DNA of 56,821 nt from Actinomycetes bacterium (GCA_021784765.1 JAJYHN010000203.1:1-56821), one strand, 5' to 3'; shown: positions 17,856 through 56,454, counted from the first letter of the stretch. The notes: generated by a model from the letters alone, not told the origin. Made by a program: numbers and translations.

Positions 17856-17960
17856 GGGTCTGCCTCCCAAACCGCGCCAGCCGGACTACCCTCGGAGGTG
17901 CGTTGGTCGATCACGGCGAGGATTCACGCTCGACTGGATGACGAGAGCGGGGTGGGTGAC

Positions 17961-20600: not shown

Positions 20601-21307
20601 GACGGTCCGGGGGGAGCGGGGCGGCCCCGGCCCCGGGACCGAGCCGCGCGCGGCCGGCCCCGGAGGTGCGGGTGGTCGCCGACGCGGCCGGCATGGCGGC
20701 CGAGGCCCTGGCGGTCTTCCTGGCGGCTCGGCCGAGGACGATCCTGCTCACCGGCGGCGGCACGCCGCGGCCGTTCTACGAGCGGCTGGCCGCCCTCGCC
20801 GGCTACGAGTGGAGCGAGGTCGAGTGCTTCTTCTCCGACGAACGGTGCGTGCCGGCCGATGACGAGCGCTGCAACGCGCGGATGGCGGACGTGGCGCTGC
20901 TCCGGAGGGTCCCCGCGCGCTCGTACCCGATCGACGGGACGGCGTGCGACGCCGACGGCTACGAGCGGATGCTGCGGGCGCGGTTCGGGGACGCGCCGCG
21001 GTTCGACCTCGCCGTCTACGGCCTCGGCCCGGACGGCCACACCGCGTCGCTCTTCCCCGGCCGGCCGGAGGTCGAGGAGCGAGCCCGCTGGGCCGTCCGG
21101 GTGCCGGAGGCCGGGTGGGAGCCGTTCGTGCCCCGTGTGTCGCTGACCGTTCCCGCGCTGTCGGCCGCCGCCGTCGGGATGTTCCTGGTGAGCGGGGAAG
21201 GGAAGCGGGAGCCGCTCCGCCGCCTGCTGGCGGGCGAGGACATCCCCGCCGCGAGGTTGGCGCCGGGTCGGCTCGTGGTGATCGCCGATGAGGCCGCCGT
21301 CACCTGA
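20597..21307 (+). CDS. pgl: 6-phosphogluconolactonase
   Basis: LTGGGTPRPFYE...FFSDERCVP...LGPDGHTASLFPG. GTGA overlap with tal-pgi. The true start may lie further downstream. Confidence 0.85.
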   Translation: MRRSGGSGAAPAPGPSRARPAPEVRVVADAAGMAAEALAVFLAARPRTILLTGGGTPRPFYERLAALAGYEWSEVECFFSDERCVPADDERCNARMADVALLRRVPARSYPIDGTACDADGYERMLRARFGDAPRFDLAVYGLGPDGHTASLFPGRPEVEERARWAVRVPEAGWEPFVPRVSLTVPALSAAAVGMFLVSGEGKREPLRRLLAGEDIPAARLAPGRLVVIADEAAVT

Positions 21308-42007: not shown

Positions 42008-42542
42008 CGTCGCCTCCGAACTGGGACCGGAGGCCCGCGCGGGCCCGGGAGATCCGCACCCGGACCGAGACGGGGGCGACCCCGAGGATCCTGCCGGCCT
42101 CCTCGTCGGTCATGCCGAGCCACTCGACCAGCACGAGGGCGGCCCGCTGGCCCGCCGGGAGCGCCCCGAGGGCGCGAGCGATCTGGTCTTTGACCTCGAG
42201 CGTCACCCCGGGATCCTGACCGCCGCCTCCGGGCTCGTCCTCCAGTCGTCGTCGAGCCCAGGCCGCGAGCCGGCGCAGGCGGCTCCGGTGCAGGTTCATC
42301 GCGGTTCGGTACAGGTAGCCGTCGGGGGAGCGCATCGTGCGAACCCGATCCCAGCGCTCGTAGAGTCGAAGGAATGCCTCCTGGGTCAGGTCCTCGGCAT
42401 CGTCGGCGTTGCCGCAGAGCAGGAACATGGCGCGCCCGAGTCGCTCGTACTCGTCCTCGAAGAAGTCGCGAAATTCCGGCGCCCACGCCGCGGCCTCACC
42501 GGTGGATGCTGCGTCCGGACCCAAGGTCATCACGTGCAGCAT
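42000..42542 (-). CDS. ECF-type RNA polymerase sigma factor
   Basis: DAEDLTQEAFLRLYERW (region 2) and LGMTDEEAGRILGVAPVSVRVRISRAR (region 4). Confidence 0.9.
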   Translation of the reverse strand: MLHVMTLGPDAASTGEAAAWAPEFRDFFEDEYERLGRAMFLLCGNADDAEDLTQEAFLRLYERWDRVRTMRSPDGYLYRTAMNLHRSRLRRLAAWARRRLEDEPGGGGQDPGVTLEVKDQIARALGALPAGQRAALVLVEWLGMTDEEAGRILGVAPVSVRVRISRARAGLRSQFGGDDG

Positions 42543-43642: not shown

Positions 43643-44872
43643 ATGAGGTGGCTTCGACTGGCACGGGTCCTCACGGCCGGCACCGCGCTCACGCTCGTGG
43701 TCGGCATCGTCGCGGCTCCGGCCATCGCGACGCCCGCTCGCGCGAGCCGGACCGCGAGCCCTCCCTTCCGCGTGAAGGTGATCGGAACCCTCCCGAACGG
43801 GGGGCCCAAGCTCAGCGCCTCCTCGCCGACGGGGCTTTCGCCGATCGCGGTCCAGTCCGTCTACAACCTGTCGGGGCTCTCGGTGTCCTCGGGCGCCGGC
43901 GCCGGTCAGATCATCGCGATCGTTGACGCCTACCACGACCCGCATGCACTGTCGGACCTCAACACCTTCAACGCCCAGTACGGGTATGCGTCCCTTTCCA
44001 CCTGCACCTCGCTCTCCCAGGCCGGGCCATGCTTCCTGCAGGCCGACCCGCAGGGGACGCCCAAGGTCAACAGCGGGTGGGTCCTGGAGGAGTCGCTCGA
44101 CATCGAGTGGGCCCACGCCGAGGCGCCGGCGGCCAAGATCGTGCTGGTGGAGGCCGCGAGCAGCAGCCTGACGAACCTGTTCAACGCCGTCTCCTACGCG
44201 AACTCCATCGGGGCGACCGAGGTCTCGATGAGCTGGGGCGGCGGGGAGTCCAGCGGCGAGTCGAGCTACGACGCGGTGATGGCCCACGCGGGGACCCTCT
44301 ACACGGCCTCGGCGGGCGACAGCGGCCACGGCGCGGAGTACCCGGCGGCCTCGCCGAACGTGATCGCGGTCGGCGGGACGACGCTGAACGGGTGCAGCGG
44401 GACCTCCTGCGCCGGGTTCACCGGCGAGTCGGCGTGGTCGGGCTCGGGCGGCGGCGCCTCCGCGTACGAGTCGATCCCGGGCTACCAGTCCGGCTACGCC
44501 GGCCCGGTCTTCGGCGCCTCCACGATCTCCGGTCTGACCGGCGGGATGCGCGGCATCCCCGATGTGTCCTTCGAGGCGAACCCGAACACGGGCGTGTCCG
44601 TGTACGACAGCACCCGCTACCAGGGGCAGTCCGGCTGGTTCACGCTCGGTGGCACGAGCGTCGGCGCCCCCAACTGGGCGGGGATCCTCGCGGCAGGCGC
44701 GGCCGCGGGCACCACGGCGCTCCAGGGCGACTCCGCCATCTACGCCGGCGGCTACTCCACCAACCTGCGCGACGTCACCAGCGGGACCAACGGCAGCTGC
44801 GGAACCGACTGCACGGCGGGCACCGGGTACGACCTGGTGACCGGCCTCGGGAGCCCGGTGAACTACCCGTAG
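43643..44872 (+). CDS. Secreted S53 (sedolisin)-family serine peptidase without an obvious pro-domain
   Basis: Signal peptide, then IVDAYH, EESLDIEWAHA, SAGDSG and GGTSVGAP (Ser-Glu-Asp type motifs). Confidence 0.75.
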   Translation: MRWLRLARVLTAGTALTLVVGIVAAPAIATPARASRTASPPFRVKVIGTLPNGGPKLSASSPTGLSPIAVQSVYNLSGLSVSSGAGAGQIIAIVDAYHDPHALSDLNTFNAQYGYASLSTCTSLSQAGPCFLQADPQGTPKVNSGWVLEESLDIEWAHAEAPAAKIVLVEAASSSLTNLFNAVSYANSIGATEVSMSWGGGESSGESSYDAVMAHAGTLYTASAGDSGHGAEYPAASPNVIAVGGTTLNGCSGTSCAGFTGESAWSGSGGGASAYESIPGYQSGYAGPVFGASTISGLTGGMRGIPDVSFEANPNTGVSVYDSTRYQGQSGWFTLGGTSVGAPNWAGILAAGAAAGTTALQGDSAIYAGGYSTNLRDVTSGTNGSCGTDCTAGTGYDLVTGLGSPVNYP

Positions 44873-45011: not shown

Positions 45012-45734
45012 GTGAGACTGACCGATTTCGAGGCACTCAGCTTCGACTGCTACGGCACCCTCATCGACTGGGAAGCGGGCATCGCTGCGGTTCTCGGACC
45101 GTGGGCTCGCTCCCACGGCCTGACCGTGGACGATGAGACGCTGCTTGCCGCCTACGCCGACCACGAGGCGCGTGAGGAGGCCGACGACCCGCGAGCTCTC
45201 TACCCCGACATCCTGGCCCGCACCATGGTCGCGCTCGGACGGGAGTTCGGCGTCGAGGTCACCCCCGGGGAGGCGCAGCGCCTGGCGACCTCCGTCCCCG
45301 ACTGGCCCGCATTCGCCGACTCTCACGACGCCCTCATCTCGCTCGGCACCCGGTTCGCGCTGATCGTGCTGTCGAACGTCGACCGCGAGTCCTTCGCCGG
45401 AAGCAACCGCCGGCTGGCGGTGACGTTCGATGTCGTCCTCACCGCACAGGACATCGGCTCCTACAAGCCATCGGCGCGCAACTTCGCGGCCCTCCTTCGG
45501 GAGGCGGGCCGCCTCGGCATCGGCGAGGGCAGGCTGCTGCACGTCGCGCAGAGTCTCTTCCACGACCACGTCCCCGCCAAGAACGCCGGGCTGCCGACCG
45601 TCTGGATCAACCGCCGCCACGACCGGCCGGGCTGGGGGGCGACTCCCGCACCGCCCCTCGACGTCAGCCCTGACTGGGAGTTCCCGTCGCTGGCAGCGTT
45701 CGCCGCCGCCGTCGCCGAGGATCTCGATGGTTGA
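45012..45734 (+). CDS. HAD-superfamily hydrolase, haloacid dehalogenase type II-like
   Basis: FDCYGTLIDWE (motif I), VLSNVD and SYKPS motifs. GTG start. Confidence 0.85.
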   Translation: MRLTDFEALSFDCYGTLIDWEAGIAAVLGPWARSHGLTVDDETLLAAYADHEAREEADDPRALYPDILARTMVALGREFGVEVTPGEAQRLATSVPDWPAFADSHDALISLGTRFALIVLSNVDRESFAGSNRRLAVTFDVVLTAQDIGSYKPSARNFAALLREAGRLGIGEGRLLHVAQSLFHDHVPAKNAGLPTVWINRRHDRPGWGATPAPPLDVSPDWEFPSLAAFAAAVAEDLDG

Positions 45735-45776
45735 CGGGCAACGGCGGCCCTGCCGGCCGGCCAACCGGGGGCGCGA

Positions 45777-46139
45777 TCAGCCGGTCCCGGCGGCCTCGAG
45801 GACGGCCGCGACCACGCGAGCCGGATCGGCCATCGGGTTCGCGCTCACCGAGCGCAGCCAGGCCGATCCGCCGTGGTGGGCGAGCGAGACGAAGGCGCCG
45901 CGAATCCGCGATCGCACCTCGGTCGCGTCCAGCCCGCGGGGGCGCCAGAGGTAGATGCCGGTGCGCGGCGGGGCGTGGCGCTCGAGTCCGGGCTCCGCGC
46001 GGACCAGCCGGTCGAGCTCGACCGCGAGCGCGAGCCCCTGCTCGTCGACGTCGAAGTCGGCATCGGTGGAAGCCTGCGGGGCGTCCCTGCTCGCGAGCGC
46101 CCCGGGCCCGTCCGAGCGATCCACGGCCATGCCGGCCAT
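45777..46139 (-). CDS. Hypothetical protein divergent from hdrC
   Basis: About 120 aa with protein-like composition (DADFDVDEQGLALAVELDRLV...IYLWRPRGLD...). Start at 46139 or 46130. No family recognised. Confidence 0.4.
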   Translation of the reverse strand: MAGMAVDRSDGPGALASRDAPQASTDADFDVDEQGLALAVELDRLVRAEPGLERHAPPRTGIYLWRPRGLDATEVRSRIRGAFVSLAHHGGSAWLRSVSANPMADPARVVAAVLEAAGTG

Positions 46140-46274
46140 GGTCGCACGCCTCGGCCGCGGCGACGGACCCCCCCGGGGGGCGACTGCCCACAGGGCCCGG
46201 GTCCAACAGGGCCGATGGGCCTTGCGGGCGTCCCCGTCCCCCTGCAGGCTGCAGGAGGGAAGGGGGCAAGCCCC

Positions 46275-47000
46275 ATGACGCCGGATCCAGCGCATCGAAG
46301 CGAGGTCTCGGCGGACGTGCGCGCGAGGCGAGGGGGCCGCCGCCCTTATGGATTGCGTGGGGTCCTGCAGGAGTCACGGCTCGATCCGGGCTTCGCCGCC
46401 GAGATCGCGACGATCCCGGGCGGGGACAGGTTGCGCGAATGCATCGAGTGCGGCGCCTGCAGCGCGGTCTGTCCCCTGAGCGCCTACATGGACCACACGC
46501 CTCGGCGACTGATGGCGATGACGCAGGCCGGGTTGAGGGACGAGGTGCTGCGCAGCACGTCGATCTGGGTGTGCGCGTCCTGTTACGCGTGCACCGCCGT
46601 GTGCCCGAAGCAGATCCCGATCACCGAGGTCATGTACGCGTTGAAGCGGATGGCCGTCCGGGAGGGGACGTTCCCGAAGCGTTTCGCGACGCCGGTCCTG
46701 GCACGCGAGTTCGTCGGGTCGGTCGACCGCTGGGGTCGCAACACCGAATCGCGGCTCGCGGCGAGCCTCTACCTGAAGACCCACCCGGGGCTGCTGCTGA
46801 AGGACGGCTGGCTCGCGCAGCGTCTCATGCGACGGGGCCGGATGAGTCTCGTGCGCGAGTCCATCCGGCAGCGGGCCAAGCTCGGGCGGATGTTGCGTGC
46901 GGCCGAGACGTCACCTCCTCGCGCCGTCGTGTCGAGCGCCTCGCCGTCGTCCTCCTCGCGGCCGCGGGCTTCGGCAATCAGCGGGGAGGGACCCCGATGA
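46275..47000 (+). CDS. hdrC: Heterodisulfide reductase subunit C-like (2x[4Fe-4S])
   Basis: CIECGACSAVCP and CASCYACTAVCP motifs. Start is uncertain: ATG 46275, or later GTG/TTG, since GC3 is low over the first approx. 27 codons. ATGA overlap with hdrB. Confidence 0.85.
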   Translation: MTPDPAHRSEVSADVRARRGGRRPYGLRGVLQESRLDPGFAAEIATIPGGDRLRECIECGACSAVCPLSAYMDHTPRRLMAMTQAGLRDEVLRSTSIWVCASCYACTAVCPKQIPITEVMYALKRMAVREGTFPKRFATPVLAREFVGSVDRWGRNTESRLAASLYLKTHPGLLLKDGWLAQRLMRRGRMSLVRESIRQRAKLGRMLRAAETSPPRAVVSSASPSSSSRPRASAISGEGPR

Positions 47001-47908
47001 GATACGCGTACTTCCCCGGCTGCTCCCTGAAGGGCAGCTCGAAGGCGTACGAGGAGTCCCTTCTCGCCGTCTTCGACACCCTGGGCGAGGGCCTCGACGA
47101 GCTGGATGACTGGAATTGCTGCGGGGCCACCGCATACTTCGCGATCGACGAGGCCAAGGCGTATGCGCTCGCTGCCCGCAACCTGGCCCTGGCCGAAGAT
47201 CAGGCCGGGAACGACGCGCCCGTGGATCTCGTGGCTCCCTGCGCCGGCTGCTACATGATGCTGCTGAAGGCGGAGCGCCGCCTGAGCGAACAGCAGTCGA
47301 TTCGAGGGAGGATCGACGGCGCGCTGCAGGCCGGGGGACTCAGCTACCGCGGCCGGGCGCGGGCGCGCCACCCCCTCGACGTGCTGGTGAACGACATCGG
47401 GCTCGAGCGCATCGCCGACGCCGTCACTCGGCCGCTCGGCGGTCTCAGGGTTGCCTGCTACTACGGGTGCCTCCTCGTGCGCCCCCACGCCACCTTCGAC
47501 GACCAGTACAGCCCGACCTCGATGGATCGGCTGATGCGCACGATCGGAGCCGAGCCCGTCGACTGGCCCTTGAAGGTGCGGTGCTGCGGGGGCTCCTGCT
47601 GCGGCGGCCCCCTCGTCGGGACGATCCGGGAAGCCGGCCTGCGGCTCATCCACGACCTGCTGAAGGAGGCGAAGTCGCGCGGGGCGGACGTCCTCGCGAC
47701 GGCCTGCCCGCTGTGCCAGTTCAACCTCGAGTGCTTCCAGGAGCGCGTGACCCGGGAGTTCGGGGAGCCGGTCGAGCTCACCGTCGGCTTCTTCACGCAG
47801 CTTCTCGGACTCGCGCTGGGGCTGGACGAGCGGAGGCTCGGGATCCACCGGATGCTGAGATGGCGGCTGCCGGAGCTTGAGCCCGCGGCGGCCGGGGGGG
47901 CACCGTGA
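46997..47908 (+). CDS. hdrB: Heterodisulfide reductase subunit B-like (two CCG domains)
   Basis: YFPGCSL...WNCCGAT...CAGC and YYGCLL...RCCGG...CPLCQ. SD GGGGAGGG. Confidence 0.9.
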   Translation: MRYAYFPGCSLKGSSKAYEESLLAVFDTLGEGLDELDDWNCCGATAYFAIDEAKAYALAARNLALAEDQAGNDAPVDLVAPCAGCYMMLLKAERRLSEQQSIRGRIDGALQAGGLSYRGRARARHPLDVLVNDIGLERIADAVTRPLGGLRVACYYGCLLVRPHATFDDQYSPTSMDRLMRTIGAEPVDWPLKVRCCGGSCCGGPLVGTIREAGLRLIHDLLKEAKSRGADVLATACPLCQFNLECFQERVTREFGEPVELTVGFFTQLLGLALGLDERRLGIHRMLRWRLPELEPAAAGGAP

Positions 47909-50900
47909 GGGCTGACGGCGACGGGTCGGCGACGCAGGAGCAGCCGCCGGATGGGGTGCCGAAGATCGGCGTCTACGTCTGCCACTGCGGCCTGAACATC
48001 GCCGGAAAGGTGGACGTCGAACGCGTCGTCGAGTTCGCCGCCACGCTCCCGGGCGTCACCGTCGCGCGCGACTACACGTTCATGTGCTCGGATCCGGGCC
48101 AGGGCCTGATCGAGCGGGACATCCGCGAGGGCCTGGTGAACCGCGTCGTCGTCGCGTCGTGCTCGCCGCTCATGCACGAGGTGACCTTTCGGCGCGCGAC
48201 GGCGGCCGGCGGGATCAGTCCCTTCTACTTTCAGATGGCCAGCATCCGCGAGCACGTCAGCTGGGTCACGGACGACAGCGAGGATGCGACCGCGAAGGCG
48301 AAGGCGCTCGTCGCCGGGGCGGTGCGCCGCGTTGCGGCCAACGAACTCCTCGACCGGCGCGAGGTTCCGGTGCACCCGGACGTGCTCGTCGTCGGCGGCG
48401 GGATCGCCGGGATCCACGCAGCGCTGACGCTGGCCGGGGCCGGGAAGCGCGTCTACCTGGTGGAGCGGGAGCCTTCCATCGGCGGCCACATGGCGCAGTT
48501 CGACAAGACCTTCCCGACGCTCGACTGCGCCGCCTGCATCCTCACCCCGAAGATGGTGCAGGTCGGCCAGCACCCCTCGATCGAGCTCCTCACCTACAGC
48601 GAGGTCGAGGAGGTTTCGGGGTACGTCGGCAACTTCACGGTCAAGGTACGCAGGAAGCCCCGCTACATCGACGCGGACCTCTGCAACGGCTGCGGCCTCT
48701 GCGTCGAGACGTGCTCCTGGCGGGGGGTCCCTTCGGAGTTCGACGAAGGCTTGGGCACCCGGCCCGTCGTCTACATGTCCTTCCCTCAGGCGGTGCCGCG
48801 CCTGCCGGTCATCGACCGCGCGGGCACCTCGCCGTGCACGTTCAACTGTCCGGCCGGGATCAAGGCCCACGGCTACGTGTCGCTCGTCCGGGGCGGCCGG
48901 TACGAGGAGGCCTTCAACCTCGTGCGGCAGGCGACCCCCCTGGTCGGAAGCCTGGGCTATGCCTGCTACGCGCCCTGCGAGGACGCCTGCTCACGGGGAC
49001 GCCTGGAGGGGGCGCTGCCCATCCGCAGGCTGAAGCGCTTCGTCGCCGACACCCTCTACGGGGTCGGTCCCGCCCCGGCGCCGACACCCGCCGAGCCGAC
49101 CGGCAAGCGGGTCGCCGTGATCGGCTCGGGGCCGGCCGGGCTGACCGCCGCCTGGCAGCTCGCCGTCAGGGGACATCAGGTCACGATCTTCGAGGCCGCG
49201 CCGGAGCCGGGCGGGATGCTGCGCGTGGCGATCCCCGCCTACCGGCTGCCCACCCCGATCGTGGACGCCGACATCGAGAGCGTCACCGCCCTCGGGGTCG
49301 AGATCGTGACCTCCACTCGCGTGGAGGATCTCGAGGAGCTGCGCCGGCTCGGCTACGACGCCATCCTGGTGGCCACGGGCACGCATCGCTCGGTGAGGTT
49401 GGGGGTGGAGGGCGAGGAGCTGCCCGGGGTTCTCACCGCGCTCGATTTCCTGCGGTCGGTCAAGCTCGGAGAGCCGGTCGATCTGCGGGGCAAGGTCGTG
49501 GCGGTCGTCGGCGGGGGCAACGTGGCGATCGACGCCGCGCGCAGCGCGCTCCGACTGGCCGCGACCGGGGTCCACCTGGTGAGCCTGGAGGCCCGGCAGG
49601 AGATGCCGGCCTACTCCTGGGAGGTGGACGAGGCGGTCGCCGAAGGGGTGCTCCTGCACAACTCCTGGGGGGTGCTCCGGTTCGACGGCGAGGGGAGCGT
49701 GCGCCGGGTGGAGCTCAAGCGGTGCACTGCCGTGTTCGACGCGCAGGGCCGGTTCAACCCCCAGTACGACGAGAGCGTCGTGCAGGACCTCGACTGCGGC
49801 GCGGTGATCGCCGCCGTGGGCATGACCGCCGACGCCGGCGGGTTCGCTCCGCCCCTTCTCACCGGTCGGGCCGGGACCATCGAGGCGGACCCCGAGACGC
49901 TGCAGACCCCGCTCGCCCACGTCTTCGTGGCGGGCGACGTGGTCACCGGCCCATCGACCATCGCCCAGGCCGCCGGGCAGGGGCGGCGGGCCGCCTTCAT
50001 GATCGATCGCTACCTCGCGGGGCGCGAGCTGGACGCGGCCGAGTTCGCCAGGGTCCTGCCGGCCGTGGACGCTGCCGAGGTGCTCGCCCGGCCGCGGAGC
50101 CCGGGCCGCCGGGAGCCGCTGGCGCCGGCCAGCCGGGTCGTCGCGGCGCCGAGCGACTTCGCGCCCACCGAGCCGCCGCTCGGCGAGGAGGAGGCGCGCT
50201 CCAGCGCCGAGCGCTGCCTCGACTGCGGCGTCTGCTCGGAGTGCGGGCAGTGCGTCGCCGTCTGCCCGACCCACGCGGTGGACCTCCAGATGCCCGAGCG
50301 GGAGGTGGAGCTGCAGGTGGGCACGATCATCGTGGCCACCGGCTACAAGCCCTTCGATGCCGCCCGCATCCCCGAGTACGGCTACGGCAGGTACCCGAAC
50401 GTCTACACGAGCCTCGAGGTCGAGCGACTCGCCAACGCCTCGGGCCCCACCCAGGGCGAGATCGTCATGCGGGACGGGCGGCGCCCGGGCTCGGTCGGGA
50501 TCATCCACTGCGTCGGATCGCGGGACGCCCGGTTCAACGCCTACTGCTCCCGCGTGTGCTGCATGTACTCCCTGAAGCTCGCCCACCTGATCAAGGAGCG
50601 GTCCGGAGCCGAGGTCTACAACTTCTACATCGACATGCGCACTCCGGGGAAGGGCTACGAGGAGTTCTACACGAGGATCCTGAAGGAGGGGATGCACCTC
50701 ATCCGCGGGCGCGTGGCGGAGGTGACCGACTGGGCGGCGGTGCCGGAGGAAGAGGGCAAGCTCGTCGTCCAGGTGGAGGACACGCTGGTCGGGGCCGTGC
50801 GACGGATCCCACTGGACATGGTGGTGCTCGCGGTGGGCCTGGAGCCGCAGTCCGATGCCGAGAGCGTCCGCCGAACCTTCAACATCAGCTGCGGCACCGA

Positions 50901-51312
50901 GGGATTCTTCACCGAGCGGCACCCGAAGCTCGCCCCGGTGTCCACGTTCACCGACGGGGTGTTCCTGGCGGGCGCGTGCCAGGGCCCGAAGGACATACCC
51001 GACAGCGTGGCGCAGGCGGGCGCCGCCGCCGCGGAGGCGCTGGTCCTGGTCGATCGCGGCGCCGTCGAACTGGAGCCGAGCACCGCCTTCATCGACCCGG
51101 CCGCCTGCTCGGGCTGCCGCACGTGCGTGGGGCTCTGCCCGTTCAACGCGATCACCTTCGACGCCGAGCGGGGCGTGGCGACCGTGAACGAGGTCCTCTG
51201 CAAGGGATGTGGGACCTGTGTCGCGGCCTGCCCGTCAGGGGCCGCGCAGCAGCACCTGTTCACTGACGCGCAGATCCTCGCCGAGATCGAGGGGGTGTTG
51301 GCGCGTGCCTGA
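47905..51312 (+). CDS. hdrA: HdrA-like flavoprotein with nested NfnB/GltD-type NAD(P)H:FAD oxidoreductase module (1135 aa)
   Basis: HdrA N-domain (VYVCHCGLNIAG), FAD site VLVVGGGIAGI...LDCAACILTP, YCSRVCCMYSLK, and a C-terminal 2x CxxCxxCxxxCP. Residues approx. 305-770 match GltD/NfnB (CPAGI...CYAPCEDACSRG, VAVIGSGPAGL, VVGGGNVAIDAAR, VFVAGDVV). Confidence 0.9.
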   Translation: MRADGDGSATQEQPPDGVPKIGVYVCHCGLNIAGKVDVERVVEFAATLPGVTVARDYTFMCSDPGQGLIERDIREGLVNRVVVASCSPLMHEVTFRRATAAGGISPFYFQMASIREHVSWVTDDSEDATAKAKALVAGAVRRVAANELLDRREVPVHPDVLVVGGGIAGIHAALTLAGAGKRVYLVEREPSIGGHMAQFDKTFPTLDCAACILTPKMVQVGQHPSIELLTYSEVEEVSGYVGNFTVKVRRKPRYIDADLCNGCGLCVETCSWRGVPSEFDEGLGTRPVVYMSFPQAVPRLPVIDRAGTSPCTFNCPAGIKAHGYVSLVRGGRYEEAFNLVRQATPLVGSLGYACYAPCEDACSRGRLEGALPIRRLKRFVADTLYGVGPAPAPTPAEPTGKRVAVIGSGPAGLTAAWQLAVRGHQVTIFEAAPEPGGMLRVAIPAYRLPTPIVDADIESVTALGVEIVTSTRVEDLEELRRLGYDAILVATGTHRSVRLGVEGEELPGVLTALDFLRSVKLGEPVDLRGKVVAVVGGGNVAIDAARSALRLAATGVHLVSLEARQEMPAYSWEVDEAVAEGVLLHNSWGVLRFDGEGSVRRVELKRCTAVFDAQGRFNPQYDESVVQDLDCGAVIAAVGMTADAGGFAPPLLTGRAGTIEADPETLQTPLAHVFVAGDVVTGPSTIAQAAGQGRRAAFMIDRYLAGRELDAAEFARVLPAVDAAEVLARPRSPGRREPLAPASRVVAAPSDFAPTEPPLGEEEARSSAERCLDCGVCSECGQCVAVCPTHAVDLQMPEREVELQVGTIIVATGYKPFDAARIPEYGYGRYPNVYTSLEVERLANASGPTQGEIVMRDGRRPGSVGIIHCVGSRDARFNAYCSRVCCMYSLKLAHLIKERSGAEVYNFYIDMRTPGKGYEEFYTRILKEGMHLIRGRVAEVTDWAAVPEEEGKLVVQVEDTLVGAVRRIPLDMVVLAVGLEPQSDAESVRRTFNISCGTEGFFTERHPKLAPVSTFTDGVFLAGACQGPKDIPDSVAQAGAAAAEALVLVDRGAVELEPSTAFIDPAACSGCRTCVGLCPFNAITFDAERGVATVNEVLCKGCGTCVAACPSGAAQQHLFTDAQILAEIEGVLARA

Positions 51313-51829
51313 GGCCGAGCTCGAGCGCCGCTTCGACCCCAGGATCGTGGCCTTCTTCTGCAACTGGTGCACCTACACGGCGGCCGACCTTGCCGGGATC
51401 TCCCGGATGGAGTACCCACCTGGGGTGCGCATCGTCCGCCTGATGTGCTCGGGCCGGGTAGACCCCCAGTTCGTTCTCGCCGCCTTCCGGCACGGCGCCG
51501 ACGGCGTCCTCATCGGCGGATGCCACCCCGGCGACTGTCACTACCAAGAGGGCAACTACAAGGCCCGCCGCCGCTTCGAGCTGCTGCGGATGCTCCTGCG
51601 GGACATGGGCATCGAGGGGGAGCGGCTGCGCCTGGAGTGGATCTCGGCGTCCGAGGGCGACAAGGTGGCGCGCGTGTGCAACGAGATGACCGAGCAGATC
51701 CGAGCGCTCGGGCCGCTCAGGCTCCGTGCGGCGCCGCCGCGCGCCGGGCGTCCGTCGGCGCGCGAGGCGGCCGGAGAGGGCGCGGGGGAGCCGGTGGTGG
51801 AGGAGCCGGTGGGGGAGGCGGCCCGATGA
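51305..51829 (+). CDS. mvhD: MvhD-like [2Fe-2S] hydrogenase delta subunit
   Basis: IVAFFCNWCTYTAADLAG...LMCSGRV...GCHPGDCHY. GTG at 51305 overlaps hdrA by 8 nt. Confidence 0.9.
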   Translation: MPEAELERRFDPRIVAFFCNWCTYTAADLAGISRMEYPPGVRIVRLMCSGRVDPQFVLAAFRHGADGVLIGGCHPGDCHYQEGNYKARRRFELLRMLLRDMGIEGERLRLEWISASEGDKVARVCNEMTEQIRALGPLRLRAAPPRAGRPSAREAAGEGAGEPVVEEPVGEAAR

Positions 51830-52818
51830 GCAAGCCGAAGGTCGCGTTCTACTGGGGGGCCTCGTGCGGGGGCTGCGAGGAGGCCGTGGTCGACCTGGCC
51901 GAGGACCTGCTCTCGGTCGTGGAGCGGGTGGACATCGCCTTCTGGCCGGTGGCCCTCGACTTCAAGCGGGCCGATGTGGAGGCGCTGGCCGACGGCGAGC
52001 TGGCCGCGTCGTTCATCAACGGCTCGGTCCGCACGTCCGAGCAGGCGGAGATGGCCGAGCTCCTGCGCCGCAAGTCGCAGGTGGTCATCGCCTTCGGAAG
52101 CTGCGCCCAGCTCGGCGGAGTCCCCGGGCTCGCGAACCTCCACAGCCGCGAGGCGATCCTGGAGTGCGTCTACCAGGAGGCGCCCAGCCTGGTCAACGAG
52201 GAGCGCACCGTCCCCCAGCTGGCGACCCACGTCCCCGAGGGTCGGGTGACGCTCCCGAGCCTCCTGGACTCGGTGCGCACCCTGGACCAGACCATCGAGG
52301 TCGACTACTACCTGCCCGGCTGTCCCCCGCCCGTGCCCCTCATCGGCGCGGCCGTCACGGCCCTGGTGGAGGGGAAGCTGCCTGCGAGGGGAGCGGTGCT
52401 CGCCCCGGACGTCGCGCTGTGCGCGGAGTGCCCGCGCTCGGCGACCAAGCCGGAGAGGCTGCTCGTGAAGGGCTTCCACCGGACGCACGAGGTGGTGGCC
52501 GACCCCGAAGTGTGCCTGCTCGCCCAGGGCCTGCTGTGCCTCGGCCCGGCGACCCGGGGCGGCTGCGGCGCGAGCTGCATCGGGGGGAACATGCCGTGCA
52601 CCGGCTGCATGGGCCCAACCAGCAGGGTCCTCGACTACGGCGCCAAGGCGCTGTCCGCGATCGGTTCGCTGCTGGACTCCAACGACGAGGAGGAGATCGC
52701 CGCCCTCGCCGGCGAGATCGTCGACCCCGTCGGCACGTTCTACCGCTACAGCCTGCCGGCATCCCTGCTGCACCGCCGCGCGGAGCCGGCCTCGCGGGCG
52801 GGAGGCTCCTCATCATGA
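51826..52818 (+). CDS. mvhG: [NiFe] hydrogenase small subunit, MvhG-like
   Basis: ASCGGCEEAV, GSCAQLGGVPG, LPGCPP and a CIGGNMPCTGCMGP cluster of Cys motifs. ATGA overlap with mvhD. Confidence 0.9.
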   Translation: MSKPKVAFYWGASCGGCEEAVVDLAEDLLSVVERVDIAFWPVALDFKRADVEALADGELAASFINGSVRTSEQAEMAELLRRKSQVVIAFGSCAQLGGVPGLANLHSREAILECVYQEAPSLVNEERTVPQLATHVPEGRVTLPSLLDSVRTLDQTIEVDYYLPGCPPPVPLIGAAVTALVEGKLPARGAVLAPDVALCAECPRSATKPERLLVKGFHRTHEVVADPEVCLLAQGLLCLGPATRGGCGASCIGGNMPCTGCMGPTSRVLDYGAKALSAIGSLLDSNDEEEIAALAGEIVDPVGTFYRYSLPASLLHRRAEPASRAGGSSS

Positions 52819-54278
52819 GCCGCGAGATCGTCATCGACCCAATCACCCGGCTGGAAGGCCACGGCAAGATCCACGTCTTCCTCGACGACGCCGGCGATGT
52901 CGACCGCGCATATCTCCAGATCCCGGAGCTCAGGGGATTCGAGAAGTTCGCCCAGGGACGCCGCGCTGAGGACATGCCGCAGATCACGTCGCGCATCTGC
53001 GGGGTTTGCCCGATGGCACACCACATGGCCGCAACGAAGGCCCTGGACGACCTGTTCAAGGTCGACCCCCCGGCGGCCGCGAAGAAGATCCGGGAGCTCG
53101 TCTACAGCGCGTTCATGTTCGAGGATCATGCGCTCCACTTCTTCTTCCTGGGCGGGCCCGACTTCCTCGTCGGCCCGGCGGCGCCGAAGGCCGAGCGGAA
53201 CATCCTGGGCGTCATCGGCAGGGTCGGGCTGGAAGTCGGCAAGGAGGTCATCGGGGTTCGTCAGCAGCTCCGCGCGCTGATCGGGCAGACCGCGGGCAAG
53301 GTCATCCACCCCGTGTTCGGGCTCCCGGGCGGCCTGTCGCGCCCGCTCGACCCCGAGCTCCAGCAGGAGTTCGCCGCCGCGGCGGCCCGAGCGGTGGAGT
53401 TCGGCAAGTTCGCTCTCGGCGTGTTCCGGGACGTCGTCCTCCGCACGCCCGAGTTCGTCGAGATGGTCACCGCGGAGGCCTACACGCACCGCACGTACTG
53501 CATGGGCCTGGTGGATCAGGCGGACAAGGTGACCTTCTACGAGGGGACGCTCCGGGTGGTGGACCCCGAGGGCCGGGAGTTCCTCCGCTGCGATCCCAGG
53601 GAGTACCTGGCCCACATCGCGGAGCACGTGGAGCCGTGGAGCTACATGAAGTTCACGTTCCTCAAGGAAGTCGGGTGGAAGGGGTTCACCGACGGGATGG
53701 AGAGCGGTGTCTACAGCGTCGCGCCGTTGGCACGGCTGAATGCCTCCGAAGGGATGGCCACCTCCTTCGCGGAGGAGGCCTACGAGGAGTTGGTCTCGAC
53801 CCTGGGCGGCAAGCCCGTGCACCACACCCTCGCCAACCACTGGGCCCGGATCATCGAGCTGGTGTACGCCGCGGAGCGGATGGCCGAGCTCGCGGCCGAT
53901 CCGGAGATCCTGGACTCCCAGGTCCGCACGCTGCCGACGGCCGTGCCGGTGGAGGGGATCGGTGTGGTCGAGGCGCCGCGGGGGACGCTGATCCACCACT
54001 ACTGCACCGACTCCCGAGGGCTCATCACCAGGGCCAACCTCATCGTGGCAACCCAGAACAACGCGGCCCGGATCGCGATGTCGGTGGACAAGGCCGCCCG
54101 CGCCCTGATCAAGGGCGGCGAGGTCGACGACGCTCTCCTGAACCAGGTCGAGATGGCCTTCCGCGCGTACGACCCGTGCCTCGGTTGCGCCACCCACAGC
54201 CTGCCCGGGCAGATGCCGCTCATCATCGCGATCCACGATCCAGGGGGCGGGGTCGTGCGGGAGATCCGTCGGGACTGA
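52815..54278 (+). CDS. mvhA: [NiFe] hydrogenase large subunit, MvhA-like (group 3-type)
   Basis: RLEGHG, the L1 motif RICGVCPMAHH and the L2 motif DPCLGCATH, followed by a 26-aa C-terminal extension. ATGA overlap with mvhG. Confidence 0.92.
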   Translation: MSREIVIDPITRLEGHGKIHVFLDDAGDVDRAYLQIPELRGFEKFAQGRRAEDMPQITSRICGVCPMAHHMAATKALDDLFKVDPPAAAKKIRELVYSAFMFEDHALHFFFLGGPDFLVGPAAPKAERNILGVIGRVGLEVGKEVIGVRQQLRALIGQTAGKVIHPVFGLPGGLSRPLDPELQQEFAAAAARAVEFGKFALGVFRDVVLRTPEFVEMVTAEAYTHRTYCMGLVDQADKVTFYEGTLRVVDPEGREFLRCDPREYLAHIAEHVEPWSYMKFTFLKEVGWKGFTDGMESGVYSVAPLARLNASEGMATSFAEEAYEELVSTLGGKPVHHTLANHWARIIELVYAAERMAELAADPEILDSQVRTLPTAVPVEGIGVVEAPRGTLIHHYCTDSRGLITRANLIVATQNNAARIAMSVDKAARALIKGGEVDDALLNQVEMAFRAYDPCLGCATHSLPGQMPLIIAIHDPGGGVVREIRRD

Positions 54279-54280
54279 CG

Positions 54281-54847
54281 ATGCGCACGCTGATTCTCGG
54301 GCTGGGGAACGAGCTGGCCGGCGACGACGCCGCGGGACTGCTGGTGGCCCGGGCACTGCGGGAGGAGCTGGCCGGTCGGGCCGACGTGGTGGAGAGTTCG
54401 CTGTCGGGCCTCGCTCTACTGGAGATCTTCGTGGGGTACGACCGCGCCGTCGTCGTCGATTCGGTTCGGACCGGCAGAAACCCTCCTGGCACGATCACGG
54501 AGCTGGCGCTGGCCGATGTCGGACGGGTGTCGGCGCCGAGCCTCCATCACACGGGGCTCCCTGAGGTGGCCGCCATGGCCGAGCGGCTCGGGCTGCGGTT
54601 CCCCGCCGAGACTCGGGTTCTCGCCCTCGAGGTCGTGGATCCCTACACCATCGGGGCGGAACTGAGCGAGCCGGTCGCGGCCACGCTCGGCCCGCTCGCT
54701 CGAAGGGTTCGCGACCAGGTCGAGCGCTGGGCGGAGCAGGACGGTGCTCGGGCCCGACGGCGGGCCGACGGCACGCGAAGGATCGGGGCACGCGGGGAAC
54801 GGTCGTGCACGACTACGGCGCCGTCCGAACCCTCGTCGAGCGGCTGA
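54281..54847 (+). CDS. Hydrogenase maturation endopeptidase (HycI/HybD/FrhD family)
   Basis: ILGLGNELAGDDAAG, VVVDSV, SLHHTG. Starts 2 nt after the mvhA stop. Confidence 0.85.
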   Translation: MRTLILGLGNELAGDDAAGLLVARALREELAGRADVVESSLSGLALLEIFVGYDRAVVVDSVRTGRNPPGTITELALADVGRVSAPSLHHTGLPEVAAMAERLGLRFPAETRVLALEVVDPYTIGAELSEPVAATLGPLARRVRDQVERWAEQDGARARRRADGTRRIGARGERSCTTTAPSEPSSSG

Positions 54848-55118
54848 CGGCGCCCGTTCGTGACGGCCCCGGCGCTGCAGCCGGGCCGGGTTCCACCACC
54901 ACACAGGTCATGGTGCGCTCGACCCCGGCCTGCCCCTGGATGTCCCGGAGGACCGATGCGGCGAGGTGATCGAGGTCCGAGGCCTCCACCTGCGCGATGA
55001 CGTCGTAGGGGCCGACCGTCTGTTCGGCCGAGCGCGCTCCCTTGCGCTTGGCAAGCGAGGTGGCGACTTCCGGGGCCCTGCCGACCCCGGTCAGGATGAG
55101 GACGTAGGCGCGAACCAC
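54813..55118 (-). CDS. Stand-alone Lrp/AsnC ligand-binding (RAM) domain protein
   Basis: VVRAYVLILTGVG...VGPYDVIAQVEASDLDHL...IQGQAGVERTMTCVVV. GTG at 55118 is preceded by GGAGGTGGG. No HTH domain. Confidence 0.6.
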   Translation of the reverse strand: MVRAYVLILTGVGRAPEVATSLAKRKGARSAEQTVGPYDVIAQVEASDLDHLAASVLRDIQGQAGVERTMTCVVVEPGPAAAPGPSRTGAVSRSTRVRTAP

Positions 55119-55307
55119 ACTCCCACCTCCGTGCTCGTAGGCTCCACTCGCCACGATGGGCCCATGCGAGCGGGAGGGAAGGTCCGAACGGCCCGGGACC
55201 GCCGGGCATTCGAGCCCAGCGGGGAGATGGTGGCTGCAGTCGGTGTCTCACTTCAGCCCGACAGACAGGGTTGCGACGGGGGAGGCGCATCGAGCCGATC
55301 TCCTGAC

Positions 55308-55325
55308 GAGGGTGGAACCACCCTC
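55308..55325 (-). terminator. Hairpin GAGGGTGG-AA-CCACCCTC
   Basis: Perfect 8-bp stem 15 nt downstream of the BNR-repeat gene stop (minus strand). Confidence 0.4.
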
Positions 55326-55339
55326 ATACAAGGCTCGGC

Positions 55340-56454
55340 CTACTCGGAAGGCGGCTGGTCAGGGCTCCAGGTCTGCCCGCCGTCGGTGGTCTTCAGCACC
55401 CGGGACGCCGAGCCGCAGCCGGTCTTGAAGCCGGTGCACCGGTGGGTCTCGACCAGGGCCCACCCGACCTTGGGCGAGACGAACGCGATGCGAGGGAACC
55501 CCGCGAGGGCCGGGTTGGCGGCCACCGTTGACCAGGTGGCACCACCGTCGGCGGTGAGGTAGACCGTGCCCGTGGGGGCGACCACGAGCCAGTCCACGGG
55601 GGTGGCGAACGCGACCCCCGGCATGCCGGTGTTCTGGAAGCTCGGGTCGTGCAGCGTGCCGGCGACCGCCCAGGTCGCACCACCGTCGGCGGTCGTGTAG
55701 AAGGCGATGTCCTCCAGGGGGGTCCCGTAGGCGGCGAGCCCGGCGGCCATCACGCCGACCTTGGGGCCGAAGAAGGTGGGAAGGGACACCGGAAGGACCA
55801 GGTCCCCACTGTCCGCCGCAGGGACCGGGAGGGTGGAGGGCTGCCAGCTCGCTCCCCCGTCGTGGGTCAGGGCGAGGCGCTCGGGGTAGACGCCCTCGAG
55901 CGCCCAGCCGGTCTGCGGGCCCACGAACTCGATCGGGCCGGCGAAGGGCCCCGAGCCAAGGCTCGTCCAGCTCGCCCCACCGTCGGTGGTCCCGTACAGG
56001 TCCGCCTGCGTCCCGGCCGCTCCGCCCGCCGGGGTCTGGACCGTCATCCAGCCGTGGCGCGGGTCCACGAAGCTGAGGTGCACGCCCCCGAACCCGTTCG
56101 GGTACTGGGTGGGGAGCACGCTCGTCTGCCAGGTCACCCCGCCGTCGGCCGTCCAGGCGATCTCGATCTTGCTGCAGCCGGTTCCCTGGGCCTCGGCCAC
56201 CCAAGCGTGGGCGGGGTCCAGACCCACACCTCACCGGGGGCTGCCGCGCCGAGGGAGGTGATCGTCGCCGTGGGTCCCGGAGGCGCGGAGGGACTCGGCG
56301 TCGCAGAGGCGCTCGGTCCGGCAGCCGGGCCGGCGCTCGGGCTGCGCGACGCGGCGGCCGACCAGAGCCCCGCGACGAGCCCGGCGACCAGGACGAGGCC
56401 CGTGATCCCCGCCCCGACCCGCCGCCTGCGCTCCCTCCTTCGAACGATGTCCAT
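55340..56454 (-). pseudogene. Membrane-anchored BNR/Asp-box repeat protein split by a frameshift near 56225-56240
   Basis: The frame starting at ATG 56454 gives an Arg-rich N-terminus, a TMS (ITGLVLVAGLVAGLW) and a Pro/Ser linker, then degenerates. The adjacent frame opens right after a TGA and carries six Asp-box repeats (TADGGVTW, TTDGGASW ...). Confidence 0.65.

Follow-up and report, generated by a model that had tools for sequence, protein, structure and literature searches.

A GltD-type NAD(P)H cassette nested within the HdrA subunit of an Actinomycetes Mvh-Hdr operon

Results and discussion

An Mvh-Hdr operon with an enlarged hdrA gene

We analyzed a 56,821-nucleotide stretch of DNA from an Actinomycetes bacterium (GCA_021784765.1, JAJYHN010000203.1:1-56821; ~72% GC), hereafter the window, which carries on its plus strand an operon in the order hdrC-hdrB-hdrA-mvhD-mvhG-mvhA-hycI (Table 1). 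The operon encodes the subunits of a heterodisulfide reductase (Hdr) and a [NiFe] hydrogenase (Mvh), and its hdrA gene contains, within the inserted ferredoxin domain of HdrA, a complete cassette with the fold of the small subunit of glutamate synthase (GltD) and of NfnB. HdrA-based complexes constitute one of the four known families of flavin-based electron bifurcation. MvhA includes the sequences RICGVCPMAHH and AYDPCLGCATH, corresponding to the L1 (ICGxCxxxH) and L2 (AYDPCxxCATH) signatures of Mvh (PMC6085437), and with MvhG and MvhD encoded alongside, the hydrogenase is assigned to group 3c. Successive genes overlap at hdrC/hdrB (4 nt, 46997-47000), hdrB/hdrA (4 nt, 47905-47908), hdrA/mvhD (8 nt, 51305-51312), mvhD/mvhG (51826-51829), and mvhG/mvhA (52815-52818), with only hycI set apart, by 2 nt. 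Overlaps of 4-8 nt suggest translational coupling. A consensus scan of positions 45500-55400 for promoters and terminators found nothing, a result that is uninformative in a genome of 72% GC.

At 1135 amino acids (aa), the predicted HdrA greatly exceeds the solved HdrA chains (643-671 aa), in keeping with a first-pass annotation of the window, made from the sequence without database searches, which had given a canonical length of about 650 aa. That annotation had also named a possible artefact, namely that an hdrA gene and a gltD-like gene were joined by a stop or frameshift missed in assembly or annotation. We assign this reading a negligible probability and rejected it. The open reading frame (ORF) is single, with its sole stop at the end (1 stop in 1136 codons); G+C content at third codon positions (GC3) is 0.93-0.97 in all 150-codon windows, including those over both insert junctions; beyond the insert, the HdrA sequence continues in the same reading frame, and both halves of the split domain contribute cysteines to every ferredoxin cluster. 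Full length is also retained in more than 115 independent homologues from NCBI, JGI, ENA, and Logan, among them proteins from complete genomes of the cultured bacterium Caldithrix abyssi. A 1060-aa ORF that overlaps hdrA (48084-51266) was discarded as a shadow frame with a GC3 of only 0.50.

Table 1. Positions of the nested hdrA gene, its domains and motifs, and the other genes of the operon, counted from the first nucleotide of the window.
Feature	Position	Strand	Evidence
hdrC, ~241 aa (start uncertain), 2x[4Fe-4S] subunit	46275..47000	+	Pfam Fer4_8/Fer4_9/Fer4_17, aa 53-114
hdrB, 303 aa, two CCG domains, disulfide-reducing subunit	46997..47908	+	Pfam CCG, E 8.3e-26, two stretches
hdrA, whole nested protein, 1135 aa	47905..51312	+	HdrA2 NF040770, 816.7 bits in two stretches; PDB HdrA 8rvu_a, E 1.6e-217
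Inserted ferredoxin domain, first half, aa 251-299 (C260, C263, C266, C270; ends FPQAVP)	48655..48801	+	Aligns with methanogen HdrA ~240-290; cysteines invariant
GltD/NfnB-fold cassette, aa 300-776, ~475 aa	48802..50232	+	Matches to PRK12771, NfnA 9n5u_A, and StnC 8oh5_C; stretch absent from canonical HdrA
Cassette iron-sulfur (Fe-S) region: C311-x3-C315-P, C354-x3-C358-E-x2-C362, Lys377 ligand position	48826..49053	+	Pfam Fer4_20, aa 308-383
Fold for flavin adenine dinucleotide (FAD), VAVIGSGPAGL...FEAAPEPGGML, with Arg447 of IPAYRLP	49111..49251	+	Pfam NAD_binding_8; Pyr_redox_2 from aa 402
NAD(P)H fold: G536-G-G-N-V-A541; V-S560-L-E562-A-R replacing x-Y-R-R-x-R, then EMPA	49504..49614	+	Alignments to nested HdrAs and solved relatives
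E-R-C771-L-D-C774, end of the cassette, with the two leading cysteines of the NfnB-type RCx2C...Cx3CP motif in displaced position	50209..50226	+	In HdrA alignment gap; same 'RCLeCG' in StnC, 9bov_A, and NfnA
Inserted ferredoxin domain, second half (C777, C780, C783, C787-P)	50233..50304	+	Aligns with second Cx2Cx2Cx3C of methanogen HdrA; invariant
Rest of thioredoxin-reductase-like domain (E840, K891, C869/C881/C885/C886) and C-terminal 2x[4Fe-4S] domain (C1068-C1109)	50305..51312	+	PDB HdrA, aa 772-1132; Pfam Fer4, aa 1062-1113
mvhD, ~174 aa from GTG 51305, [2Fe-2S] linker subunit	51305..51829	+	Pfam FlpD, E 1.6e-57
mvhG, [NiFe]-hydrogenase small subunit	51826..52818	+	Pfam Oxidored_q6, E 5.6e-21
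mvhA, group 3c [NiFe]-hydrogenase large subunit	52815..54278	+	Pfam NiFeSe_Hases, E 1e-33
HycI-type hydrogenase maturation protease	54281..54847	+	Pfam HycI, E 1.7e-07; same place in homologous operons

A conserved HdrA core split by the cassette

Solved HdrA chains match the window protein in two pieces with E values of 1e-183 to 1e-217, and the NCBIfam HdrA models divide in the same manner, roughly up to aa 300 and then from aa 771 to 1132. Because the insert splits the match and the models are archaeal, the NCBIfam scores fall below the equivalog cut-offs (816.7 bits against 1100 for NF040770; 572 against 1400 for NF041778). Pfam places 4Fe-4S motifs at aa 253-271, 777-798, and 1062-1113. 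With the middle of the protein spliced out and the remainder aligned to methanogen HdrA, E840 and K891 fall opposite E356 and K409 in 5odc_A, the Glu/Lys pair (Methanothermococcus thermolithotrophicus numbering) that serves as a criterion for the bifurcating FAD of HdrA (PMC9430772). Statements about invariance, here and below, rest on an alignment (A1) of 17 diverse homologues from many phyla, in which this pair is invariant, as are the cysteines of the core clusters (C26, C28, C61, and C86; C260-270 with C777-787; C1068-1109). Judged by these residues, the HdrA core keeps the signature of a bifurcating-type FAD.

All motifs quoted in the first-pass annotation were found where it had placed them, including the two ferredoxin motifs CNGCGLCVETC (aa 260-270, nt 48682-48714) and CLDCGVCSECGQCVAVCP (aa 771-788, nt 50215-50268), and the GltD/NfnB-like stretch that it described between them was recovered far above chance in every type of search it had proposed. 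Pfam identified Fer4_20 (aa 308-383, E 2.7e-10) and Pyr_redox_2 (aa 402-693, E 2.1e-41), NCBIfam identified PRK12771, 'NAD(P)-binding protein' (aa 307-807, E 1.4e-141), and the matching PDB chains were NfnA of the Bfu-type NfnABC complex (9n5u_A, E 1e-89; 9bov_A, E 2.3e-88), StnC (8oh5_C, E 2.4e-85), and Thermotoga maritima NfnB (4ylf_B, E 5.9e-61). The limits proposed for the insert, aa 305-770, were revised to approximately aa 300-776 (nt 48802-50232) by the alignment to methanogen HdrA. What had been read as a second ferredoxin motif is correctly located and belongs to the ferredoxin domain in its C777-C787-P part, while C771 and C774 fall in the alignment gap and are part of the cassette. 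As C311 and C771/C774 share one cluster motif, the two ends of the cassette meet at a cluster abutting the split ferredoxin domain.

The cassette supplies seven cysteines and one lysine for two clusters. All 15 cysteines of the ferredoxin domain and cassette are invariant, together with GSGPAG (G407, G409, P410, and G412 of the FAD fold), GGGN-A, and R447. In total, the binding motifs in this one polypeptide account for two FAD, an NAD(P)H site, and eight [4Fe-4S] clusters, with its partner subunits encoded in the same operon, and the earlier proposal that a bifurcating HdrA FAD and a second FAD with an NAD(P)(H) site share one chain agrees with the presence and invariance of all the binding motifs.

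An AlphaFold model of the whole protein had a mean predicted local distance difference test score (pLDDT) of 71 and a predicted template modeling score (pTM) of 0.51. Superposition, which the first-pass annotation had suggested with inter-cofactor distances in view, returned both folds: the template modeling score (TM) was 0.72 against HdrA 5odh_A and 0.78 against NfnB 4ylf_B, the latter with a root-mean-square deviation of 2.4 Å. Among solved chains in this superposition, none spans both the HdrA core and the cassette. Within the cassette, pLDDT is 80-94 over most of aa 400-710. A poorly conserved linker at aa ~705-765, with pLDDT below 50 at aa 719-747, lacks an NfnB counterpart yet can be aligned to StnC and 9bov_A.

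The cassette is of the StnC type

Classical NfnB has a contiguous RCx2Cx4Cx3CP motif and GRVCPQExQCx3C (PMC6405883). In the window protein, the first of these is split, with Cx3CP at aa 311-316 and RCx2C at aa 770-774, about 455 residues apart. StnC, 9bov_A, and NfnA align with the same order of cysteines, ending with 'RCLeCG' after the nucleotide domains, and the GltD-like region of StnC (aa 102-565) is likewise nested in a larger Fe-S protein (PMC10482914). K377, at the position of the fourth ligand to the flavin-proximal cluster, aligns with K170 of StnC and with Glu in NfnB (4ylf_B and 5jca_L); it is invariant in the 17-sequence alignment and differs in 2 of the ~80 surveyed cassettes (Gly in L032, Glu in L055). 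By sequence, the insert is matched best by StnC (8OH5) and Bfu-type NfnA (9BOV, 9N5U) (45-50% identity, E 1e-85 to 1e-89), which resemble it in their limits (PCxxxCP...RCLxCG), lysine ligand, and nesting, but their hosts are NuoG/formate-dehydrogenase-like rather than HdrA, and they retain the Tyr-Arg-Arg (YRR) element described below and use NADPH. The large subunit of NfnB/NfnSL (4YLF, 5JCA) shares the fold, two [4Fe-4S] clusters, FAD, and nicotinamide site, whereas none of its four distinguishing features, namely the contiguous RCx2Cx4Cx3CP motif, the Glu cluster ligand, the Arg-Arg pair for NADPH, and an NfnA partner, is found with the window protein. On this evidence from alignment, the module is a permuted, Lys-ligand cassette of the StnC/Bfu-type NfnA kind and not a classical NfnB; of the identity initially given to it, the GltD/NfnB fold stands and NfnB proper does not.

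This distinction bears on whether the cassette FAD might be a true NfnB-type bifurcating flavin, which would give the complex two bifurcation sites and four substrates (H2, NAD(P)H, ferredoxin, and a disulfide). A second bifurcation site has been floated for ANME-1 (PMC9012536), so the suggestion already exists in the literature, and in the window protein both Rossmann folds and both clusters are complete and the invariant R447 aligns with R201 of NfnB, the arginine at flavin N5. R447 also aligns with R239 of StnC, the geometry of which relative to flavin N5 led to the report that the StnC FAD is non-bifurcating (PMC10482914); the arginine is hence non-discriminating. The proximal-cluster ligand is lysine, as in StnC, rather than the Glu of NfnB, the closest solved relatives are Bfu-type modules, and neither the operon nor the window ORFs scanned contain a gene for an NfnA-like partner ([2Fe-2S] and FAD, with an NADH site) that could accept the high-potential electron. 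We therefore downgraded the idea of two bifurcating flavins and regard it as improbable.

Replacement of the arginine pair at the nucleotide site

The glycine motif of the NAD(P)H fold, G536-G-G-N-V-A541, which the first-pass annotation had flagged as a possible point of degeneracy, is intact, and the change lies downstream, where an Arg-Arg pair is missing. About 90% of the nested HdrAs and 5 of 5 solved NADPH-binding relatives have YRR (x-Y-R-R-x-R before EMPA), in place of which the window protein (aa 559-564, nt 49579-49596) and its nearest relatives (P0002-P0005) have V-S/C-L-E-S/A-R. In NfnB, two conserved arginines hold the 2'-phosphate of NADPH (PMC6405883). Variants with C-L-E or C-I-E are scattered among unrelated nested and double HdrAs (L027, L037, L038, L050-51, L072, P0062, P0083, P0099, and P0120; loci and protein clusters are described below). 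Rossmann folds that bind NAD(H) are classically marked by an acidic residue where the second strand ends, and L-E occupies the corresponding position in eukaryotic NADH-dependent glutamate synthases. Because Ser-Leu-Glu replaces the arginine pair, the nucleotide in the lineage of the window is probably NADH. The recurrent S/C-L-E variants look like a repeated switch from NADPH to NADH, and the alternation of YRR and S/C-L-E offers a simple candidate marker of nucleotide specificity.

Loss of the family's arginine pair, together with ~45 linker residues that are disordered in the AlphaFold model, could instead be taken as a sign that the insert has decayed or is purely structural and binds neither FAD nor NAD(P)H. 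We consider this very unlikely: GxGxxG, GxGxxA, all Fe-S cysteines, K377, and R447 are invariant across phyla, most of aa 400-710 is modeled with the high confidence given above, and the recurrence of SLE or CLE in several lineages has the appearance of a selected change of specificity.

In a separate group of homologues (P0011-P0047; 1144-1162 aa, including Solirubrobacteraceae and Streptosporangiaceae metagenome-assembled genomes (MAGs)), the 'MDAARTARRLGA' helix that directly follows GGGNVA has undergone an internal duplication of ~20 residues, with an acidic linker between the copies.

Relation to HdrL and other described HdrAs

HdrL was defined in 2009 as a fusion of heterodisulfide reductase and glutamate synthase with an NADH-binding site, always followed by mvhD (PMC2702500), and it is abundant in sulfate-grown Syntrophobacter (PMC5947623); these two studies, on Desulfobacterium autotrophicum HRM2 and Syntrophobacter fumaroxidans, bear out the mention in the first-pass annotation of 'HdrL' in sulfate reducers. 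In our survey, Desulfobacterales loci (within L008-L036) have a nested HdrA that equals the window protein in length and layout and precedes mvhD. Unlike the window, these loci are without the catalytic MvhGA and continue with further hdrA-like genes and hdrCB; the proteins are 46-52% identical to the window protein.

The sole relative with biochemistry is HdrA of Moorella thermoacetica, in which a thioredoxin-reductase-like (TrxR-like) domain is interrupted by a GltD domain and which oxidizes NADH (190 U/mg with benzyl viologen; PMC9430772, PMC5861303). As in the window protein, the GltD domain of this HdrA, a component of MetFV-HdrABC-MvhD, includes [4Fe-4S] clusters, FAD, and an NAD(P)H site; the Moorella protein differs in having 1487 aa, two TrxR-like domains, and methylene-tetrahydrofolate (methylene-THF) reductase rather than a hydrogenase as its partner. 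The Moorella-type double HdrAs of ~1470 aa (L037-L049, P0103) bear the inserts most similar to that of the window.

In archaea, an insertion in the ferredoxin domain was first noted in 2022 in HdrA9-11 of ANME-1 (PMC9012536). A 2025 survey named the form 'type III HdrA' and, with nine archaeal sequences, found it to be the least represented type; type III hdrA of Bathyarchaeota was clustered with mvhADG, structure prediction had the GltD domain blocking access of ferredoxin, and a disulfide and protons were hypothesized to be reduced with NADH as the mid-potential donor (PMC12054007). Compared by published description, the archaeal proteins, in which a ~500-aa GltD/NfnB-like domain splits the inserted ferredoxin domain of a type I HdrA and NAD(P)H has been proposed in place of ferredoxin, share the layout of the window protein. 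The latter is bacterial, its nearest relatives are from Actinomycetota MAGs, and it has SLE rather than YRR at the nucleotide site; against the nine archaeal sequences stand over 115 clusters from bacteria and no fewer than 15 operons linked to Mvh.

With the methanogen MvhAGD-HdrABC complex (PDB 5ODC; 8RVU), the window operon shares the same six subunit types, the fold of the HdrA core (TM 0.72), the E/K flavin signature, and the Mvh L1/L2 motifs. Methanogen HdrA, at ~650 aa, binds a single FAD and six clusters and reduces soluble ferredoxin through a ferredoxin domain that is free, and its substrate, the heterodisulfide of coenzymes M and B (CoM-S-S-CoB), is not expected in the bacterium of the window.

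The window protein has its cassette within the inserted ferredoxin domain and is followed directly by mvhD (FlpD, 51305-51829), as described for type III HdrA and HdrL. By its architecture, it is a further bacterial case of this known design, one that is common in bacteria. The novelty implied when the nested form was first noticed was thus overstated: the form was published in 2022 (PMC9012536) and, with mvhADG, in 2025 (PMC12054007), and an identical operon is present in the Caldithrix abyssi genome. The paper describing that genome reports an hdr-group 3c hydrogenase cluster of unknown function and does not mention the insert (PMC5317091). Among the papers searched, we found no explicit account of nested HdrA in bacterial Mvh-Hdr operons.

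Distribution of nested HdrA and exchange of the cassette

In a search of 5.8 billion proteins, 120 clusters were listed, nearly all 1100-1160 aa long and matching with 54-77% identity at 97-100% query coverage; among these matches, more than 115 full-length clusters have the nested architecture. Named sources included Solirubrobacteraceae, Streptosporangiaceae, Syntrophorhabdaceae, Acidobacteria, Sumerlaeia, Hydrogenedentes, WOR-3, Acetothermia, and the cultured Caldithrix abyssi, and the named homologues are annotated merely as 'FAD-dependent oxidoreductase' or 'HdrA'.

We also surveyed loci by tblastn with the operon proteins of the window, taking a single genome for each species; the 80 loci obtained fell into five classes. 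Class 1 has the gene order of the window, hdrCB-nested hdrA-mvhDGA(-hycI) (L001, L002, L006, L007, L013, L018, L023, L027, L031, L033, L034, L035, and L054); L005 is similar but has mvhAG on the opposite strand, and the operon also occurs in L081 (Caldithrix abyssi) and L082. Gene calls bear out the class 1 operon in Caldithrix abyssi and in P0005, a close relative of the window. Class 2, from Desulfobacterales, is the HdrL arrangement, in which nested hdrA-mvhD precedes more hdrA-like genes and hdrCB. In class 3, a distant [NiFe] hydrogenase is followed by hdrCB and nested hdrA; class 4 comprises the 'double' HdrAs of ~1470 aa with the cassette, that is, the Moorella type; and class 5 has an HdrA that lacks the insert in an otherwise identical hdrCBA-mvhDGA operon. 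The first-pass annotation had called for a survey of nested HdrA beside mvhDGA: class 1 operons occur in no fewer than 15 loci, spread over about nine phyla, and nested HdrA is encoded in 15 of the ~35 sampled loci that are Mvh-linked.

Neighbor-joining trees, based on distances only, were built from 625 columns of the core and 403 columns of the cassette. In the core tree, insert-less Mvh-linked HdrAs (L059-L080) are interleaved within the radiation of nested ones (L001-L036), which points to loss or regain of the cassette, and the window groups with L023 as sister to an insert-less HdrA from Actinomycetes (L061). The cassette tree instead places the window, P0002, and P0005 with double-HdrA cassettes of Actinomycetota MAGs (L037, L038, and P0103), with 100/100 bootstrap support. 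Identities follow the same division: the HdrA core of the window is closest to L023, L035, and L001 (78-82%), whose cassettes are only 57-59% identical to that of the window and do not group with it, whereas the window cassette (aa 305-710, nt 48817-50034) is 60-66% identical to those of L037, L038, and P0103. The core is also 74% identical, over its C-terminal segment, to insert-less HdrAs of Actinomycetes in operons of the same kind (L059 and L061). Across these comparisons, the cassette appears to have been exchanged or lost repeatedly between HdrA types.

Several loci carry variations on these arrangements. P0103, a 1478-aa Moorella-type double HdrA with the cassette (L083, 5807-10243), lies in a cluster of the order hdrC-hdrB-hdrA-mvhD-x-mvhG-mvhA-hycI-hyp; its association with hydrogenase genes indicates that double HdrAs are not confined to methylene-THF reductase contexts. 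An Acetothermia MAG has a stand-alone GltD-like gene between nested hdrA and mvhD (L013, 13297-14538), and another such gene adjoins a second hydrogenase in L068 (1747-3141).

Proposed electron flow

We propose, with a probability of about 0.5, that the window encodes a type III (HdrL-type) HdrA of a bacterial MvhAGD-HdrABC complex, in which the cassette places NAD(P)H on the ferredoxin arm and the bifurcating FAD couples this nucleotide to H2 and a disulfide. In this scheme, the cassette would act like those of StnC and Bfu-type NfnA, converting without bifurcation between NAD(P)H, which carries two electrons, and an Fe-S wire that takes one at a time; the StnC module is reported to feed electrons from NADPH into an Fe-S chain without bifurcation. 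The wire would pass through the two ferredoxin-domain clusters to the bifurcating FAD of HdrA, along the arm that serves ferredoxin in methanogens, so that pyridine nucleotide would replace ferredoxin. The energy-coupled reaction would be 2 NAD(P)H + RSSR + 2 H+ <-> 2 NAD(P)+ + 2 RSH + H2, where the pressure of H2 would set the direction. Standard potentials rise from -414 mV for H+/H2 through approximately -320 mV for NAD(P)H to approximately -140 mV for a disulfide, and because the NAD(P)H couple ranks between the other two, NAD(P)H would be the two-electron partner in the coupled reaction. A donor role for NAD(P)H agrees with the oxidation of NADH by Moorella HdrA and with the hypothesis published for archaea in 2025.

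A different assignment would leave the roles of the arms as in methanogens: H2 would deliver electrons through MvhD, the high-potential electron would go to HdrBC and the disulfide, and the low-potential electron would pass through the ferredoxin-domain clusters and the cassette to NAD(P)+. The reaction would then be 2 H2 + NAD(P)+ + RSSR -> NAD(P)H + H+ + 2 RSH, with both half-reactions downhill at standard conditions; the enzyme, an H2:NAD(P)+/disulfide reductase with obligate coupling, would be of use chiefly when H2 pressure is very low. The position of the insert coincides exactly with the arm that leads to the low-potential acceptor in methanogen HdrA; close relatives, whether or not they carry the insert, have cores 74-82% identical to that of the window protein in operons that do not otherwise differ; and the interleaving of insert-less and nested HdrAs in the core tree suggests that the module has been swapped on and off a conserved bifurcating core. 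However, bifurcation would be thermodynamically needless here, as electrons would pass from a donor at -414 mV to a less negative acceptor at -320 mV. NADH is moreover the donor in the only GltD-bearing HdrA that has been studied, that of Moorella, and the mid-potential donor in the archaeal hypothesis. We consider this assignment of unchanged arms a serious alternative that is nonetheless rather unlikely.

Three points weigh against our proposal of NAD(P)H entering by the ferredoxin arm. Given the 74% identity of the C-terminal core segment to that of the insert-less L059 and L061, it would be more parsimonious if the arms kept their roles, H2 donating electrons and the ferredoxin arm accepting them. 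The pTM of the AlphaFold model is too low for inter-cluster distances or occlusion of ferredoxin to be read from it. Finally, YRR is equated by its position with the 2'-phosphate arginines described for NfnB (PMC6405883).

Extending the proposal beyond the window, we raise the tentative possibility that bacterial nested Mvh-Hdr complexes are widespread hydrogenases that bifurcate or confurcate electrons independently of ferredoxin, with NAD(P)H as the couple of intermediate potential (2 NAD(P)H + disulfide <-> H2 + dithiol); the Actinomycetota lineage of the window would have obtained its cassette by exchange with a double HdrA of the Moorella type, and the cassette would have changed its nucleotide from NADPH to NADH (YRR to SLE). 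If this were true, the nucleotide module would be a swappable part that retunes the redox pools joined by a hydrogenase. For bacterial group 3c hydrogenases, the routine annotation, 'ferredoxin- and heterodisulfide-linked', is carried over from methanogens; should many bacterial Mvh-Hdr operons bear the module on the ferredoxin arm, such annotations and the metabolic models derived from them would be wrong there. The finding brings no new principle, and Caldithrix abyssi, which is cultured and has the same operon, provides a tractable test system.

Other genes in the window

Among the 30 window ORFs scanned, none encodes a candidate thiol/disulfide partner such as DsrC, MetFV, or a lipoate-binding protein, and the scanned genes outside the operon are otherwise housekeeping or transport genes. 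In the relatives L082 and L083, hypA and the hypCDEF maturation genes directly follow hycI, a place taken in the window by an opposite-strand BNR/Ycf48-like gene (55340-56227). Upstream of the operon, a second BNR/Ycf48-like protein of 786 aa is encoded on the minus strand (39647-42007) next to an ECF sigma factor (42000-42542). Farther upstream, a 900-aa fusion of transaldolase and phosphoglucose isomerase (17898-20600, plus strand) precedes a gene of the 6-phosphogluconolactonase family (20597-21307). Two well-supported plus-strand ORFs lie directly upstream of the operon, at 43643-44872 and 45012-45734, with GC3 of 0.95 and 0.82, respectively. Neither was matched by Pfam at E <= 1e-4; on visual inspection, the second looks like a HAD-type hydrolase.

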